Positions 28,414-50,698 are shown, counted from the first letter of the stretch. The stretch is DNA of 64,000 nucleotides from a virus (IMGVR_UViG_3300032007_000010); one strand, 5' to 3'. Numbers and translations: made by a program. Notes: a model not told the origin generated them from the letters alone.

Positions 28414-29019
28414 ATGACGAAGGTAACCAGCAAGATCAGGGCGGGTTTTACGCTCACCCTGAACGGTGCGGACTACTACATGGAGAAGGGCCGAGACATC
28501 GATGAGCTCCGAGTGCATGGCCCCTACAGCGATGAGATCGTATCCGGTAAACTCATCGGATTTTCCATCCGCGACCGTCATTCTTCCAACAGAGATGCCA
28601 GCATCTACGACGGTATCCCGACCCACATGTTTGTCACGGATCACATGGCAAACATCAAGGACCTCGAGCTCAGTTCCGAGATCGCACATCTCATGATCCT
28701 CGCGCCCGTGGAACCCGGCCAGGGTGCCATTGAGCACGAGATCGTCGTGACGAAGGTTCCGGTGGATCGCATTGTCGGAATCACCGGCACGTTCACGGAT
28801 CCCGAGGGCAACGTGACCATGACCGTGGATCTCACCGATGAGACGGTGTCTATCTCCGAGCTCTTGGCCCAGGCAGATCCGGAGGTGACGACATCTCTGG
28901 TTATCGGAACCGGTGACATCGAGGAATCCATCCAGATCGCCGTCGATGCGAATGTGCTCGGCGAGAACGCGAGTGTTCCCCAGAACTTTGATCAGAATCC
29001 GGAAGAGGAGGTGGCATGA
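28414..29019 (+). CDS. Hypothetical, probably structural protein
   Basis: 201 aa behind late promoter, coupled to next gene. Confidence 0.7.
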   Translation: MTKVTSKIRAGFTLTLNGADYYMEKGRDIDELRVHGPYSDEIVSGKLIGFSIRDRHSSNRDASIYDGIPTHMFVTDHMANIKDLELSSEIAHLMILAPVEPGQGAIEHEIVVTKVPVDRIVGITGTFTDPEGNVTMTVDLTDETVSISELLAQADPEVTTSLVIGTGDIEESIQIAVDANVLGENASVPQNFDQNPEEEVA

Positions 29020-30968
29020 TGGGAACCAAATTCACCAAACCCGTGACCATTGATGCTCCTGGCAAAGATGTCGTGTTTGATGGATGCGACTTCAGCAACG
29101 AGGCGCATGTAATCATCGAGTACGCGAGCACCGTCACCATCAAGAACTGCAGATTCTTCAATCTCGTCGGAACCGCAGCTCCGATTCAGATCAAGAACGC
29201 TGCGCTCCTCTGTGTCAGCAACTGCTACTTCGGCATGCCCATCGAGGGCGACTATGACGAACTCATCGAGAACTTCGATTCCTGCAACAACGAGTTCTGC
29301 AACAACTTTGTTCGTTCTGCGGCGCCGCTCAGGCTCACGAACCTCAGCATGGAGGGTCTCTGCCGCATCATCAAGATCAACGACAACCACTTCGAGAAAT
29401 CGGCACCGGCGATCATCGTCTCTCCGAAGGAAAGCCCCTGCGTCACCATCGAGGCCAAGCGCAACACCGCGAAGTCCTACGTTGGCGAATACGAAGGCAT
29501 CGTGGCGATCCAGCCGTACGGAACCGAGACGGTTTCCATGAACAGCGTCGTCGTCGATCTCACCGGCAAGTATTACCTCTACGCCGGCAAGGATGATACC
29601 CAGTTCTCCAAGAAGGATAATCTTCCGATCGTCGTGATCAACGAAAAGGTGGTCAAGACGAAGGATCTGACGCTGGCCGGTGACACGGTCATCGACATGC
29701 CCTTCGACTCCATCGAATGGAAGACCGGCTTCGTTCCCGCCGACACCAAGATCACCAGAACTACCACCGGTCGCGTGGTGATCTACGACGATGGTGAAGT
29801 CCTCGACACCAAGGCCGAGTACGCCGAACAGCTCCCGAACTGGGAACTGGTCTATGATCCCGAATATCTCAGCGTATCCACCGCTCCGACGGCCTACTCA
29901 TCCTACATCGGCTTTGTGCTCAAGGGTGTCAAGGCCGGCGAAACGACCATCGAATATCGCAACAAGGAAGATGAGACGGCGAAGGTCAGTGCGACCATCA
30001 AGATCGATCACTATCTGAGCATCCGCATCGCGCCGAGTGGCACACACCTCGTCGAAGCGGGTGCGGTCGAGATCGATGCTAGCAGCACCTTCGATGGCGA
30101 GGCCATGAATCTCGACGAATATACCTTCACCAGCTCCGATGTCAGCATTGCCACGATCGATGGCACAACGATCAGCCCGCTCAAGGCCGGCAGCATCAAT
30201 GTCATCGCGACCAAGAAGAGCGATGCCAGCGTGTCTGCCACCGCCACGGTGTCCTTTGTCGCGGCAGCGGTCAAGATCGACGACACCTTCTATGATACCA
30301 TCAAGAGTGCGCTGAAGGCGGCCAAGTCCGGTGATACTCTGGTTCTCCAGCGCGATGTGGTCGAAAGCGTGAGCTTCGCGGGTGAACTTCCCCGTGTGGA
30401 TGGCTTTGTGCTGAACATTGATCTGAATGGCCACACCTGGACGAGCAGTGCGACCCAGTCCTACGCGTTCCGCTGCGACTACGGTATCGTGACCATCAAA
30501 GATAGCATCGGCGGCGGTGCGATCAGCTACGGCAAGGACTATGCACTCGTCGTGAGCCACCTGGCCGGAGACTATGTCTCCAAGCTGATCATCGAGGCCG
30601 GCACGTTCACGGGCAAGACCTCTGTCCTCCAGGATGGCACCGCCGGTGGAACCGGTAGCAACAAGAAATACTACGGTGGTGAGGTCGAGATCCTCGGTGG
30701 TACGTTCATCACGGTTCCCGACGAAGGTGAGTCCTATGATGATCAGGGCAACTTCAGGTACACGCTCAACATGCTGGACATGAACGAGTCCGCATATCCC
30801 GGCGGTATCTACAGCCCGTCCGTGATCAGCGTCAAGGGCGGTACCTTCCAGAAATTCAATCCGCAGAACTGCGCGGCCGAGGGTCCGAACACCAACTTCG
30901 TGGCCGAAGGCTATGCTGCGGTGGACAACGGCGATGGCAGCTGGACTGTCAAACCGGTCAACGAGTAA
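29016..30968 (+). CDS. Probable virion surface protein (beta-helix-like N-terminus, Ig-like domains)
   Basis: Asn/Cys-ladder N-terminus; FTSSDVSIATID...G...V.A Ig signature; IDLNGHT and GGTF repeats. Confidence 0.6.
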   Translation: MMGTKFTKPVTIDAPGKDVVFDGCDFSNEAHVIIEYASTVTIKNCRFFNLVGTAAPIQIKNAALLCVSNCYFGMPIEGDYDELIENFDSCNNEFCNNFVRSAAPLRLTNLSMEGLCRIIKINDNHFEKSAPAIIVSPKESPCVTIEAKRNTAKSYVGEYEGIVAIQPYGTETVSMNSVVVDLTGKYYLYAGKDDTQFSKKDNLPIVVINEKVVKTKDLTLAGDTVIDMPFDSIEWKTGFVPADTKITRTTTGRVVIYDDGEVLDTKAEYAEQLPNWELVYDPEYLSVSTAPTAYSSYIGFVLKGVKAGETTIEYRNKEDETAKVSATIKIDHYLSIRIAPSGTHLVEAGAVEIDASSTFDGEAMNLDEYTFTSSDVSIATIDGTTISPLKAGSINVIATKKSDASVSATATVSFVAAAVKIDDTFYDTIKSALKAAKSGDTLVLQRDVVESVSFAGELPRVDGFVLNIDLNGHTWTSSATQSYAFRCDYGIVTIKDSIGGGAISYGKDYALVVSHLAGDYVSKLIIEAGTFTGKTSVLQDGTAGGTGSNKKYYGGEVEILGGTFITVPDEGESYDDQGNFRYTLNMLDMNESAYPGGIYSPSVISVKGGTFQKFNPQNCAAEGPNTNFVAEGYAAVDNGDGSWTVKPVNE

Positions 30969-37127: not shown

Positions 37128-37244
37128 TTTAAGCGTCCTCCTTTCTAATCTATCATCGTTATAATATATACGCCGCCACCAGAACATGTTCAGAATGAAT
37201 GTCACCGAACATTTTTATATAAATAAGGAGGTGAAAACGGCCTT

Positions 37245-42279: not shown

Positions 42280-42498
42280 ATGTCACAGCCCAGCAACCGT
42301 GGCACAAAGCCCGAGCGCATGAAACCAAATGATCCCCATAGGCCAAAGATTGTGAAGAGGAACTATCATGTTACCGAGATCACGGCCTATAATATTCGAC
42401 GTCTTGCGATGGAGAATAGCACATCGGAGGGTCGCATCATCGACAAATTGGTGCGCAACTACCTGGCCGATCGTGAGATTTCTCGACCTGGACATTAG
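42280..42498 (+). CDS. Small ribbon-helix-helix-like DNA-binding protein
   Basis: KRNYHV strand + TAYNIRRLA helix + SEGRIIDKLVRNYL helix; GGAGG RBS. Confidence 0.5.
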   Translation: MSQPSNRGTKPERMKPNDPHRPKIVKRNYHVTEITAYNIRRLAMENSTSEGRIIDKLVRNYLADREISRPGH

Positions 42499-42562
42499 TA
42501 TAAACAGGCAGTGTTATAATCCAGTCATCATAAAACATCGAACAAAGTGGGGTGAAATAACA

Positions 42563-45597: not shown

Positions 45598-46101
45598 ATG
45601 ACACTCATCCAACTAATTCGCAAGACTCAGGGGCTTCGATTCACCATCGTGAACCATAACACCGGCACGACCATCTCCGAGAATCAGGATGCCGAGAATT
45701 TGATCAACGGCATCAACGCCATCGATGATGCGTGGCTCGACGGAACCGTGGAGCGCATCGGAATCCAGGATGGCATCCTCCTGGTGTCGATCCAGCGCAA
45801 GATGTTCCGCAACTACTATCGCAATGGCCAATCCAAAATGGTCACGCGTAGCTCCGATGTGCACCTCAAGCTACGCAAGCTCTGCCGTGATCTCTTCCTG
45901 CCCGAACAGCGTCTGATCATTGCTGATCCCATTCGGCAGATTGGCTATGATGAGGTGGACACTCGCTCGTTGTATCCGTTTCGGGATGCTGATGAGACTT
46001 TGACCTCGTTTCTCGATCGACGCGTGGATCATGTCGAGGCCAGTCGCAAGGGCACGATCCGTGTGCAGCTCCGGGACAATCCCATCGACGAGAAACATTG
46101 A
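45598..46101 (+). CDS. Hypothetical protein
   Basis: 167 aa, AAGGA RBS. Confidence 0.75.
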   Translation: MTLIQLIRKTQGLRFTIVNHNTGTTISENQDAENLINGINAIDDAWLDGTVERIGIQDGILLVSIQRKMFRNYYRNGQSKMVTRSSDVHLKLRKLCRDLFLPEQRLIIADPIRQIGYDEVDTRSLYPFRDADETLTSFLDRRVDHVEASRKGTIRVQLRDNPIDEKH

Positions 46102-46146: not shown

Positions 46147-47283
46147 ATGTGGAGTAATCTTAGACCCAACAAGGTATACGACAGCCCGGCGATTTATCGG
46201 GCGAACATTCGGTGCAGGTTTACCGAGAAGGCACTGGGAACCTGGCCCGGCGATCCCGACATCTATACATCCTACATAGCCTCCAACGCCCCGGATGCCA
46301 AGACCATGGCCGAGGATATCGCCATCTTCGGTGAGGAACAGGTTCGCGAGAAGGGTATCACGGTGTTTCCCAGCGGTGTTTTCTATCGCGGCGGGGATGG
46401 TGTCTGGTATGATCCGATCTACCAGATCATCCCGCGCAAGGATGGCAAATTGCCCAGCTCCAAGGTCGTCGAACAGATCCAGAAGGAGCTCATCGCCGCG
46501 GACGCCCGCGCCGAGGAACAGGGCAAGGATAAGCTCAAGCACGGACCCGTGGTCATCGGCGACTGCATCGATGCCTATAGCGGTTTCTATGCGATCAACC
46601 GCATGGCCAGCGAGGAGGGTCAGCTCATCGATGGTGTCTGGGTGGAAAACTGGCCCTACATCTGTGCATATCAGATCCGCGGTGGTTTCAAGGAGAAAAT
46701 TGCACTGCTGAATCGCGCCGACAAGGGCGCAGCCACCAATGGCAATGTCGAGGAACCTCCCAAGGAAGAAGAGAGTCCGGCCGAAAAATCCAAGAAGACG
46801 AGGAAGGCCAAACCCGAGAAGAAGACCAGCTTTGCGGCTTCGCAGATCACCGCGCACAAGAAGGTTGTTGATACCAACTGGTTCATCGAACAGAAACGCA
46901 TCCCCTTTGATTTGCCAGACACCTTTGTCGATGACAAGGGAATCGTGCGCGCCACATGGGTCGAGAAGATTGTTCCTGCGGACAAGGACAGCGGCACCGA
47001 AGAAAAGGTGATTCATCGTCTCTCAACCTTCACTCGGTCGCTACGTGCCGATACTGCCCAGGGACCGAGAACCTCCATTGCCTGCTCGGAGATTGTTCCG
47101 GCCGGCACCGAGTTCTGGTTCACGGTGATCCTCATGCAGCGCAAGCACAAGAATGCGCTCATCGAAGTCATGGACTCCATGGAACGCTCCGGCATGCTGC
47201 AGTGGAGATCCGGTGGCATGGGAACATTGATCTGGACGCCATGTGATGATCATGGCAATCCCATCGATGAGATGCCCGAGTAA
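46147..47283 (+). CDS. Solo RAMP (Cas7/Csm3-like) protein
   Basis: N-terminal strand RANIRCRFTEKALG, PYICAYQIRGGFKE helix motif, SEIVPAGTEFWFTV, C-terminal Gly-rich loop SGMLQWRSGGMG; no other cas genes in the window. Confidence 0.75.
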   Translation: MWSNLRPNKVYDSPAIYRANIRCRFTEKALGTWPGDPDIYTSYIASNAPDAKTMAEDIAIFGEEQVREKGITVFPSGVFYRGGDGVWYDPIYQIIPRKDGKLPSSKVVEQIQKELIAADARAEEQGKDKLKHGPVVIGDCIDAYSGFYAINRMASEEGQLIDGVWVENWPYICAYQIRGGFKEKIALLNRADKGAATNGNVEEPPKEEESPAEKSKKTRKAKPEKKTSFAASQITAHKKVVDTNWFIEQKRIPFDLPDTFVDDKGIVRATWVEKIVPADKDSGTEEKVIHRLSTFTRSLRADTAQGPRTSIACSEIVPAGTEFWFTVILMQRKHKNALIEVMDSMERSGMLQWRSGGMGTLIWTPCDDHGNPIDEMPE

Positions 47284-47294
47284 ATTTACTCGGG
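47275..47294 (+). other. Perfect 20-bp palindrome over the RAMP stop codon
   Basis: CCCGAGTAAA|TTTACTCGGG. Confidence 0.85.
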
Positions 47295-47310
47295 TGTAGC
47301 TCATAACATT

Positions 47311-47565
47311 CTGGCTTCGGCCAAGGAACCGGAAGAGTCCCGGATTGCTCCGGGATGTTCTTCGAAGGTGGGTAGGCATTCGAGTTTCAAAAGGTTCCGC
47401 TCGATGTGAGACCAAGCAATACAACGGAAGTGTGTAGAACTGCCGTGCTCGGCGATGTCCAGTTACCTGTTGTGGAGCGTTGGCATGGCGAGGAATGGTC
47501 CGACAACATCTCGTCTGGCAACGGTAGATGAGCATAGTAAAGCCCAGAAACGTTGCGACACTGAG
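47311..47565 (+). ncRNA. Candidate guide-like ncRNA made of NG(N)NN pentamers
   Basis: G at position 2 in 23 of 27 consecutive pentamers (47426-47560) and 9 of 11 (47331-47385); bounded by a hairpin and a terminator. Confidence 0.65.
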
Positions 47566-47566
47566 G

Positions 47567-47605
47567 AAAGAAAACACCCCGGGATTCCCGGGGTGTTTCT
47601 TTTTT
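47567..47605. terminator. Bidirectional terminator
   Basis: AAACACCCCGGG/CCCGGGGTGTTT with A- and T-runs; nearly identical to 36718-36756. Confidence 0.85.
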
Positions 47606-48152
47606 ACTTCTTCTCGTTGGCGTCGGCCGCGAGCTGTTCCTTCTTCTCCGAGACCACCGAAGCAGTCTTGGCGTTGCGCTGGAGCTTCGCATAGAGCTTC
47701 TTGGCAAGAATCGAGGCCTTGGCACCGTAGTGGGCCTTCATCTCGGCCATGTTCTCCTTCTTGATGCGCATGCCCATCTTGTACTTGGTGTAGTTCTTGG
47801 AGCCCTGCTTGCGGGCGATCTTCAGCGTGATGATCGAGGTCAGGCGATTGATCTGCGCCTGCTTGTTCATATGCACCACGTTGAGCTTCGGATTGATATG
47901 AGGCACCGTCGCCTCATCGATGAGACCCTGACCCACGAAGTAGTCCTGCACCTTGAGGAACGCATCCTTGGTCGCCTCGTCGAGGTTCGCAAAGGATTCG
48001 TCCATGATCTGCGCCTGCAGAATGATGGGCAGACAGTCCGCCATGCATTCGGACATGAACTTCGGATCGTTTTCGAACTCACTCACATCGACTTCGGCTG
48101 CCTCATCGATTTTACCCGAAAAGGCCTTGAGAGCTTTGAGCACATCACCCAT
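47604..48152 (-). CDS. Probable virion protein (acidic propeptide-like N-half, basic C-half)
   Basis: Start MGDVLK after AAGGAGG; IDEA, MDES, LDEA, IDEA sites; late promoter 48268-48280. Confidence 0.65.
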   Translation of the reverse strand: MGDVLKALKAFSGKIDEAAEVDVSEFENDPKFMSECMADCLPIILQAQIMDESFANLDEATKDAFLKVQDYFVGQGLIDEATVPHINPKLNVVHMNKQAQINRLTSIITLKIARKQGSKNYTKYKMGMRIKKENMAEMKAHYGAKASILAKKLYAKLQRNAKTASVVSEKKEQLAADANEKK

Positions 48153-48267
48153 GGTAAAAACTTCCTCCTTCCCCTGGGGATTTTGACAGATTAGACTGAA
48201 ATGTTTGCGCAAACATTTAAGCATCCCATCTCCCGCCGCACGGGTGTCCGGTCCGTGCGGTAAATGC

Positions 48268-48280
48268 TTATATTCATGTT
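48268..48280 (-). promoter_or_regulatory. Putative late promoter
   Basis: AACATGAATATAA. Confidence 0.55.
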
Positions 48281-48359
48281 TCATCCTTTCATTCGATATC
48301 GATATGGCTACAATATTATAATAGTATGAATCATATAATCATCGGTGGAGGAAACCACA

Positions 48360-48685: not shown

Positions 48686-50698
48686 TTGGTTGCACAGAAG
48701 AACGTGTTTAAGCATACGTGGATTTCGAGGATGACCGAGGCGATGACCATGACACATCCCGAGTTGGATGTGTCAGAGGTCGAGGCTATCGTGGTCAAGA
48801 TCTTCGATGCCCGTTTTCATGATACCGAGGTTAGCATCTATAACAACTATGAGAACACGGTCGCATCCATGACCCTCGCATCCACCATCGACTGGATCAC
48901 CACGAACAAACCGCTCATCGCTGAGTCGGGGGTTTTCTTCTACCCAAAGGACAAGAAACGAAACATCAATGTTGAGATTATTAAGGACGATATGCTCGAT
49001 GTGCGCACCATCCACAAGGCGGAGAAATTCCAGGCCATGGAAGCCGGAGATGAGATCCTCGCCGCCGTGAAGGATCTTCAACAGGGCAACGATAAGAAGG
49101 CCGCAAACTCGGGCTATGGCGCAGAAGGTGAGTCGAGTTCGTTCCTCTACAACATTCATTCGGCATCGTCGGTTACGTCCTGTGGTCGTGGTCAAATATC
49201 CACGGCCTGTCAATGCTTCGAAAATCTGCTCGAGGATAACGTGAAGTTCTTCCATATGACCGAATTCTTCACCTTCGTGCACAATGTCATCGCCGAAGCT
49301 CCCGATTGGCGCTTCGATACCTTTGATATTGTTCCGAAGATTCCATCGAGAACAAAGTTCATCAACAGATTCCTCGGAAAGTTTGGACACGAATCACTCT
49401 ACGACGAAGAGCAGATCGGACAGGTCTACGATTATCTCGATGATGAACAACGTGTCAGAGTGTATTACAAGGCTAACATACGAGAATTTCTCGCATTGCG
49501 CAAACCGAGCCAACTCTTTTCGGACATCGCATGTACCAAGGTTGAGTTCATTGACCCGAACAAGATCCCGAACGAACTGCGACCTATGGTGGATCAGCTC
49601 ACGGACTGGGTCATGGAATTTGTGAATTGCCGTTTCGGCGTATTTCGTTACGAAGATAGAACCAGGTATCAGAAGCGAAAATGCACCATCGTTATTGACA
49701 CAGACTCCAATTTCGTTTCATATGGACCCCTCTATGGATACCTAACAAATGGTGTTCTCGAAGGTCTTCTGTTCAGAACGAAGAAAGAGGCTGAAGACTA
49801 TAAGCTTCGGGTGCTAAATGTCTTGAGCAACTTCACCACCGTGGCAATTACCCAGAGACTGTGGGACTACTGCGGCACAGTTAACATCGCCGAGGAAGAC
49901 CGCAAGCATGTGAACATGAAGAACGAGTTCTACTACAGTCGCGTGATTGTCACCCATGCAAAAAAGTCCTATGTTGGACTCCAGAAGCGACAGGAAAAGG
50001 TCGTATTCACCGAACCGAAGCTGGATGTCAAGGGCGTTAACTTCTTCAAGAGCACGACGGCGGAAGCAACATCTAAGTTCATCTACGATGATGTGCTCAT
50101 GGGCCAGCTTTTGACCCCCGCAGATGGAAAGGTTTCACTGCGGCGCACCTACCAGACCATCTATGACTTTGAACAGCGCATGAAGCGCGAGATATCGAAC
50201 GGTGATCTTGGCTATACGAAGCGTTCGATCCGTGTAAAGACTCCGGACGGCTATGCGAATCCTTTGAGGATCGGACAATACAAGGCCGTGTACATCTGGA
50301 ATCAGCTTGTTCCGGACAAGGATAGGATCGATCTCCCAGCCACCGTGACCATCGTCAAGGTTCAGATGAGAAATAAGCAGGATGCGGCGGCTCTGGAACA
50401 GTGGCCGGATATCTATGAGAAGATGTTGAAGCTCTTCGATGAAAATGATGAAGTCGGAGATGTGATCGACCAGGATACCGGCAAACTCAAGAAGGGCAAA
50501 GGCATCAAGGCCATCGCAATGCCGTCGGAGCTCGATGAAATGCCGGACTGGCTCAAGGCTATCATCGACGTCACATCGCTGGCGGCTGATAACATGAGAC
50601 TGCTTACTCAGCTATTCCTCCCTCTCGGCCTTGCCAAATCCACCACGAGCCACAACAGCGCATCAATTCCGATGTACACAAACATAGTGCGAATATGA
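48686..50698 (+). CDS. Family B DNA polymerase, fingers/palm/thumb portion (split type)
   Basis: KKAANSGYG (motif B), VIDTDS (motif C), KKSY, LDVKGV; no recognisable exonuclease or DxxSLYP motif. Confidence 0.85.
   Translation: MVAQKNVFKHTWISRMTEAMTMTHPELDVSEVEAIVVKIFDARFHDTEVSIYNNYENTVASMTLASTIDWITTNKPLIAESGVFFYPKDKKRNINVEIIKDDMLDVRTIHKAEKFQAMEAGDEILAAVKDLQQGNDKKAANSGYGAEGESSSFLYNIHSASSVTSCGRGQISTACQCFENLLEDNVKFFHMTEFFTFVHNVIAEAPDWRFDTFDIVPKIPSRTKFINRFLGKFGHESLYDEEQIGQVYDYLDDEQRVRVYYKANIREFLALRKPSQLFSDIACTKVEFIDPNKIPNELRPMVDQLTDWVMEFVNCRFGVFRYEDRTRYQKRKCTIVIDTDSNFVSYGPLYGYLTNGVLEGLLFRTKKEAEDYKLRVLNVLSNFTTVAITQRLWDYCGTVNIAEEDRKHVNMKNEFYYSRVIVTHAKKSYVGLQKRQEKVVFTEPKLDVKGVNFFKSTTAEATSKFIYDDVLMGQLLTPADGKVSLRRTYQTIYDFEQRMKREISNGDLGYTKRSIRVKTPDGYANPLRIGQYKAVYIWNQLVPDKDRIDLPATVTIVKVQMRNKQDAAALEQWPDIYEKMLKLFDENDEVGDVIDQDTGKLKKGKGIKAIAMPSELDEMPDWLKAIIDVTSLAADNMRLLTQLFLPLGLAKSTTSHNSASIPMYTNIVRI

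Follow-up and report, generated by a model that had tools for sequence, protein, structure and literature searches.

Genome and locus organization

The window considered here is a 64,000-nt stretch of viral DNA corresponding to positions 116107–180106 of the 287,660-bp IMG/VR virus record IMGVR_UViG_3300032007_000010. The virus is a 288-kb jumbo phage with its own multisubunit RNA polymerase, and phage polymerase and virion genes are located near the locus under study. This locus (46147–47605) contains a gene for a 378-aa Cas7-type RAMP protein (46147–47283, + strand), hereafter the vipr-like gene, followed by about 288 nt of non-coding DNA that extends from its stop codon up to a terminator hairpin (47572–47605). 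A sequence-only reading of the window had described the open reading frame (ORF), with which translation agreed, and a non-coding stretch of about 270 nt before a strong terminator; the terminator was found and the length was slightly revised. It had also interpreted the locus as a solo RAMP combined with an RNA built of pentamers, similar to the VIPR (Viral Interference Programmable Repeat) systems of phages. This overall interpretation was supported, and every part of it that could be checked held.

The absence of cas genes and CRISPR repeats, previously noted for the window, was extended to the 287,660-bp genome: no Cas1 gene, no CRISPR-like repeats and no partner cas genes of a class 1 effector were found there, and the Pfam RAMP profile PF03787 gave zero matches at E ≤ 1. 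An Rfam scan of the window revealed no family and no hammerhead, either at the gathering cut-off or at E ≤ 10. A BLASTN search with the locus against GenBank phages also gave zero matches.

Vipr-like protein and its family

By sequence, the 378-aa protein has no match in Pfam, PHROG or PDB. An AlphaFold2 model based on 19 homologs (pLDDT 70) contains an RRM-type sheet with a helical bundle after the first strand (residues ~39–71), a long beta-hairpin that corresponds to the thumb (294–317, with the motif LRADTAQGPR) and a glycine-rich loop that corresponds to the G-loop (349–360, with the motif QWRSGGMG). Comparison of the model with ~48,000 solved chains showed that the top matches are nearly all Cas7-type RAMPs (Z 8–9.4), namely Cas7-11/gRAMP, type VII Cas7, Csm3, Cmr4 and Csf2. 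Proteins of this type were again first in a Foldseek search of PDB (E 3e-3), and the best match in BFVD was a 194-aa phage protein annotated as 'RAMP superfamily protein' (E 5.7e-11). A feature search of the ESM Atlas gave weak leads only. The RAMP fold that had been proposed from hallmarks in the sequence was borne out by these comparisons.

An exhaustive HMMER search yielded 851 representative clusters at E ≤ 1e-3 and thus a large, mostly viral family. Since most of these relatives are 200–260 aa long, the 378-aa protein is an enlarged member. The large insertions suspected earlier are present relative to a family core of roughly 200 aa; these are a clade-specific insertion at residues ~95–165, variable among the clade members, and, at ~190–230, a disordered basic linker rich in lysine, glutamate and proline. 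The gene is under purifying selection, with 25 of the 33 differences between strains at third codon positions.

The VIPR-type systems mentioned in the sequence-only reading do exist: they are RNA-guided silencers of DNA and comprise a lone, mostly viral RAMP (Vipr) and vrRNAs of 9–16 YNNGG units with a structured tail (bioRxiv 10.64898/2026.04.26.720920). The locus of Escherichia phage SUSP1 (KT454805; Vipr at 28474–29061 on the − strand, ALH47069.1) was used as the reference, and a family alignment was built from it. Comparison of the two family profiles using hhalign gave an E-value of 2.5e-4 over 176 collinear columns, with GxGQWRNxGxGRF placed opposite GxGDWRPRFGRF as a shared G-loop motif; against the single SUSP1 Vipr sequence, the family profile gave E 6.7e-3. 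Judged by these profiles, the family is remotely homologous to SUSP1 Vipr, and this relationship, remote as it is, is consistent with the fold. In the SUSP1 structure, G1 is contacted by H17 and D177, G2 by R138 and W178, and Y3 partly by R179 (bioRxiv 10.64898/2026.04.26.720927). The residues W353 and R354 of the window protein correspond to W178 and R179, whereas a glutamine (Q352) stands in the position of D177 and no histidine is found to match H17.

Pentamer tract downstream of the gene

When the tract 47426–47560 was read in fives, G was found at position 2 in 23 of the 27 units, which upholds the earlier count, and A or T at position 1 in 21 of 27. Whichever base is taken, a comparable period-5 score is reached nowhere else in the window, and at a threshold of 20/27 no other tract was found on either strand of the 287,660-bp genome. 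None of 100,000 shuffles of the tract reached 23/27. The binomial P is 1.5e-10 to 2.5e-8; when the size of the genome and its two strands are taken into account, it rises to 8e-5 to 1.4e-2. The array unit is W-G-N-N-N: 8% of the units begin with G, and position 3 shows no preferred base. The relaxed constant triplet reported earlier reads W-G-N here.

The canonical GGY/NN repeat does not describe this array. This does not exclude it from VIPR, because the papers accept the forms NNNNG and WGT/NN: published alternatives include NNNGG, YNNNG and NNNNG repeats, staggered arrays, single-vrRNA loci and stand-alone vipr genes (10.64898/2026.04.26.720920), and WGT/NN and TGH/NN motifs have been published as well (10.64898/2026.10.21.760802). 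As NNNNG and WGT/NN-type repeats are already in print, the novelty implied earlier for the relaxed repeat does not stand.

Upstream of the tract, 9 of the 11 units at 47331–47385 are in phase (P about 4e-3, in a G-rich hairpin region) and none of the 8 units between them and 47426. Both counts were as previously given, whereas the interpretation of the upstream units as guide sequence was not retained, the region belonging to a conserved structured leader (see below). The proposed punctuation by similar heptamers was retained in part. The motif CAACGG precedes both blocks of the array (47422–47427 and 47519–47524), and GCAA[CT]GG or AATGGT is found at block boundaries in relatives; however, the registers differ between the two guides, and CAACGG was therefore not treated as a fixed start signal. 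ORFs called mechanically over the tract, in either orientation, were dismissed as genes, since they extend through the terminator or lie antisense to real genes, and since the length of the region varies freely between relatives.

Anatomy of the intergenic region and strain comparison

The stop codon TAA is enclosed by a perfect 20-bp palindrome (47275–47294, no strand assigned), read directly at the place where it had been noted, which folds as a hairpin. It has two mismatches in strains whose gene is 97–98% identical and is degraded in L072, the nearest homolog locus. Because of the mismatches in such close strains, the palindrome is probably non-functional.

The palindrome is followed by a structured leader of 117 nt (47297–47413, + strand), which is conserved and has covarying hairpins. 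It consists of the stems P1 (47312–47323), P2 (47332–47363) and P3 (~47377–47406) and a terminal GTGAGACC box (47406–47413). The leader is nearly unchanged in L072, the protein of which is 87% identical, and the P2 stem shows compensatory changes there. In seven loci of the clade, P1 and P3 differ in stem sequence with pairing kept, and a GTRAGNCC box then stands just before the array. The fold of the leader has a z-score of −2.9. RNAalifold, applied to a MAFFT alignment of the leaders, did not recover the hairpins because this alignment is not structure-aware; folds of the individual sequences recovered them.

Comparison with the close strains and with L072 allowed us to read the segments on the + strand in the order leader, guide 1, hairpin island, guide 2 and terminator. 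Candidate guide 1 (47426–47483) contains, by phase count, ~11 W-G-N-N-N pentamers with the NN series AG GT AC CG TC GA CC TA GT GG GT; it is not conserved in L072, and its 3′ half is common to the close strains. Its beginning belongs to a hypervariable cassette (47414–47452), which comprises a short spacer, CAACGG and the first five pentamers of the guide. The conserved island (47484–47516) is a candidate constant tail or handle: a hairpin of 6 bp is formed in the centroid fold by GGCGAG (47487–47492) and CTCGTC (47510–47515), and the 5′ part can be read as four GG-N-NN units. In L072 the island is kept while both flanks diverge, and between the leader and the terminator it is the one conserved stretch. 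Candidate guide 2 (47519–47562) begins with CAACGG, followed by ~8 in-phase pentamers, again by phase count. The intrinsic terminator (47572–47605), identified in a terminator scan, has a 12-bp stem with 8 G-C pairs and a T-run; it is common to the convergent gene 47604–48284 (− strand) and is kept in the close strains and in L072. Each guide is followed by a hairpin, guide 1 by that of the island and guide 2 by that of the terminator, and both are candidate tails.

The strain comparison was based on three loci (L195–L197) with vipr genes 97–98% identical to that of the window and with nearly identical intergenic regions among themselves. Against a background divergence of 2–3% in the vipr gene and 0–5% in the intergenic parts outside the cassette and guide 2, the cassette differs in 26 of 40 columns (65%) and by a 9-nt indel. 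The rest of guide 1 (0/28 columns), the terminator (0/46), the island (1/36) and the leader (6/120) are almost unchanged, and guide 2 differs in 6 of 40 columns (15%), clustered in three adjacent units. Hypervariability is thus confined to the guides. Since CAACGG is located 25 nt further along in the close strains, their guide 1 is without the first five units of the window guide. At the sequence level, the comparison catches the exchange of a putative guide cassette amid fixed surroundings, which is direct evidence of guide turnover in the wild.

Arrays beside homologs

A survey of 57 related IMG/VR loci revealed that nearly all of them have several period-5 G blocks adjoining the gene on the same strand, which answers the question, raised by the sequence-only reading, of whether homologs also carry such tracts. 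In the six closest homolog loci, the downstream G periodicity is 5.12–5.20 nt with spectral power far above that of shuffles. L072 is an instructive case: its array, missed by a fixed-phase scan, was found by spectral analysis at a period of 5.16 nt. In L001, blocks of 6–12 units are each followed by one extra G, which is the published staggered layout. The same-strand signal persists in homologs down to about 25% identity.

The family arrays have the consensus x-G-H-N-N, with G making up only 36% of the bases at position 1 and being avoided at position 3 (8%). This consensus, in which the second G alone is fixed, fits the protein data, as the residues that read the first G in SUSP1, H17 and D177, are replaced in the family. 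The arrays of most relatives contain 40–445 units.

It could be argued that the periodicity is a matter of chance or a by-product of DNA or RNA structure, and that the intergenic region is just a 3′ untranslated region with a terminator. The 6-bp inverted repeat that encloses guide 2 and the folding of the intergenic region, which is better than that of shuffles (z −3.3), are in line with this explanation. However, no second tract of the kind occurs in 288 kb, shuffling did not reproduce it, and distant homologs carry the signal on the same strand, so we regard this explanation as extremely improbable.

Several further features of the relatives were recorded. Four loci with small Vipr proteins (L010, L014, L054 and L008) have very large arrays, from which 350–445 pentamers were decoded per 6-kb locus. 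In L004, a second copy of the last hairpin of the leader, together with a GAAAGTCC box, is located at the distal end of the 1.1-kb array (L004:3960–4020); this element may bracket the arrays or mark the start of a second array. Three loci have a terminator-like hairpin after the stop codon of vipr and before the leader (L005:4044–4165, L006:4131–4222 and L007:4110–4174), and the array there would therefore have its own promoter, unlike in the window.

Comparison with known systems

Like the type II VIPR system of SUSP1 (Vipr ALH47069.1, vap1 and four vrRNAs), the locus encodes a solitary RAMP, in a phage that has no cas genes, and this protein combines a helical bundle and a thumb with a G-loop containing the W-R pair. 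Further shared features are RNA genes of five-base repeats (putative in the window) that adjoin the protein gene on the same strand and variable parts that differ between close relatives; a candidate for the structured 3′ element that ends the array is present as well. The differences are also clear. The protein has 378 aa versus 195 aa for SUSP1 Vipr and carries the disordered basic linker in addition to two insertions; the G-G-Y anchor is relaxed to W-G-N; Q stands in place of D177, and H17 has no counterpart. The 117-nt covarying leader 5′ of the array has no described counterpart in the SUSP1 vrRNAs, the guides are not separated by a pseudoknot tail, and no vap gene is present. Similarity to SUSP1 is detectable profile to profile only (E 2.5e-4).

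Among the other VIPR classes, the NNNNG and WGT-like ones resemble the window array in that it has a single fixed G and a weak A/T before it. The staggered arrays share their layout, with one extra base every 6–12 units, with L001, L004–L007 and L072, whereas the window array keeps one phase over 27 units and has no position-3 preference.

The Cas7 subunits of CRISPR effectors polymerise on RNA at a fixed step. Csm3, Cmr4, Csf2 and the Cas7-11 domains have in common with the window protein the RRM-based RAMP fold, the thumb and the G-loop, and they are its best solved matches (Z 8–9.4). Unlike them, it is encoded by a stand-alone viral gene that is accompanied neither by a CRISPR array nor by further cas genes, and it is not matched by the Pfam RAMP profile. 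The step length would be five bases here, versus six in class 1 CRISPR Cas7 subunits.

All these characteristics allow us to consider it highly probable that the locus 46147–47605 is a VIPR system of the 288-kb jumbo phage, consisting of a divergent, enlarged Vipr and a predicted guide RNA precursor. On this interpretation, the anchor is relaxed to W-G, only two guides are present, a covarying leader stands 5′ of them, and no conserved accessory gene was found. The system is real but not of a new kind, because the VIPR class, single-G repeats and WGT/NN-type motifs are already described in preprints of 2026.

A number of observations weigh against this assignment. With an hhalign probability of 43%, the homology to the published Vipr is a distant one, and the SUSP1 genome gave zero matches when it was searched directly with the profile. 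The window array is very short (26 units versus 40–445 in most relatives), lacks the preference of the relatives for a pyrimidine or non-G base at position 3, and is single-phase throughout, unlike the staggered arrays of the closest homologs. Two of five strain substitutions in guide 2 hit anchor positions and not NN. Finally, a conserved accessory (vap) gene, which is typical of VIPR although not universal, was not found, as the neighbours of the window gene were not detected beside the clade homologs.

A RAMP–RNA particle with another job, such as RNA targeting or protection or a structural or regulatory ribonucleoprotein, was also considered; the five-base register would then serve for assembly only and not for reading DNA. 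The nearest solved folds are indeed RNA-targeting type III, type VII and Cas7-11 subunits, the clade-specific insertions and the long basic linker are absent from characterised Viprs, and the long covarying 5′ leader is a further feature without a described SUSP1 counterpart. On the other hand, the G-loop motif and the collinearity tie the protein to Vipr, which is a DNA binder, the array grammar of the relatives is that of published VIPR types, and hypervariability is limited to the guide-like parts. Such a particle is therefore thought to be quite unlikely, and the assignment to VIPR is preferred.

Target searches and the state of the locus

In VIPR, the NN bases pair with DNA, and every third target base is skipped (10.64898/2026.04.26.720920). 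The sequence-only reading had suggested searching for targets with concatenated dinucleotides. The scans of public collections used exact seeds, so targets with scattered mismatches would be missed; within this scope, nothing beyond chance and no convincing target was found.

With one-base skip, units 1–8 of guide 1 gave 0 matches in IMG/VR. Units 4–11 gave four matches in the same database, none of which extended into units 1–3, and units 3–11 gave a single match among 185,579 species genomes, without extension; these were rejected. Units 2–10 matched six sequences in JGI metagenomes, which represent three independent loci. The best of them, with 10 exact units, lies in a gene for a cellular membrane glycosyltransferase-like protein with the skipped base at codon position 1, and the second in an AraC-type gene; both were attributed to chance, as were the JGI matches in general. 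Contiguous three-base reading of guide 1 (two 18-mers) gave 0 matches, and matches in the phage's own genome with 0–3 skipped bases were no better than those of shuffled-order controls.

Guide 2 (7 units) gave more than 117 matches in IMG/VR. The outlier among them (L120:9582–9601, IMGVR_UViG_3300046009_000940) has 7 exact units and 9 of 12 flanking bases (P about 0.04 after multiplicity, a borderline value) and is located in a phage structural-like ORF (peptide ...TVTLSFWVYSS...). It was not accepted, because the skipped base does not fall on the wobble base of a codon and the matching stretch extends into the conserved island.

The short, unstaggered array without a position-3 preference could belong to a decaying or vestigial VIPR locus, in which the protein is kept, perhaps for another role, and the array is a remnant that no longer guides. 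The contrast in length with most relatives (26 versus 40–445 units), the loss of the position-3 base preference, a strain substitution that removes an anchor G, and the lack of a target under any rule tried are consistent with decay. At the same time, purifying selection acts on the gene, which is intact; conservation of the leader, island and terminator extends across the strains and L072; the phase is held over 27 units (binomial P 1.5e-10 to 2.5e-8); and the exchange of the cassette with which guide 1 begins resembles active turnover and not decay. We consider decay unlikely, if somewhat less so than a particle with another job, and an active VIPR system remains the preferred reading.

Proposed mechanism and significance

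If the locus is an active VIPR system, the DNA at 47297–47605 would encode a guide RNA precursor for the Vipr-like protein. With the solved structure of the homologous SUSP1 complex as a model, a single protomer is expected on each pentamer, so that a filament would form, and the thumb and G-loop would flip out the fixed bases of each unit. The variable bases would be presented for pairing with double-stranded DNA, and this pairing would silence a competing element or a host gene. The one-protomer-per-pentamer arrangement and the gapped targeting code, as well as RNA binding, the pairing rule and the existence of targets, are thus inferred, the first two from homology to SUSP1.

Seven types of VIPR have been distinguished in print, and the clade may be an untyped subtype. 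A more specific and rather speculative version, to which we give a low probability, is that enlarged jumbo-phage Viprs (300–420 aa, containing an additional domain and a long disordered insert rich in lysine and arginine) form a distinct subtype. In this subtype, nucleation or processing of the guide RNA would depend on the covarying 5′ leader instead of a 3′ pseudoknot tail, and the basic insert would replace the DNA-binding role of vap. In the present phage, reduction of the anchor to a single G would free three bases per unit, with a pairing rule unlike the one-base skip.

VIPR, a class described only months ago, is believed to predate CRISPR, and the mapping of its natural range continues. 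The locus extends this range to a 288-kb phage with its own multisubunit RNA polymerase and is an unusually small system of one protein and two candidate guides. It also offers a natural experiment on anchor recognition, as the residues that read the first G in SUSP1 are replaced and the first G is correspondingly unfixed in the RNA. With a compact single-G anchor, more bases of each unit would be programmable, which is relevant if VIPR becomes a tool. The basic picture already in print is unchanged by this locus.

Transcription and neighbouring genes

A scan of the leader revealed no promoter of the sigma-70-like kind. The phage's own motif DACA-N4-TATA, which fits an AR9-like late-promoter class, has 17 copies in the window versus 1.4 expected from shuffles, for example, at 37208–37219 (+ strand), 42491–42502 (+ strand) and 48269–48280 (− strand). 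The copy at 42491 is the nearest on the + strand upstream of the vipr-like gene, and there is none from 42503 to the terminator. The absence of a + strand copy in this interval suggests that the guide RNA is co-transcribed with an upstream + strand operon that would end at the terminator.

A 167-aa ORF (45598–46101, + strand) without a family ends 45 nt upstream of the vipr-like gene. It is syntenic in the close strains only and was rejected as a conserved partner, as it was not found beside more distant clade members. Downstream of the locus, a divergent family B DNA polymerase is encoded (48686–50698), which was called with 670 aa in the window and L196 and with 371 aa in L195 and L197 (4033–4137). 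Part of the strains may thus have a split gene, an intron or a frameshift.

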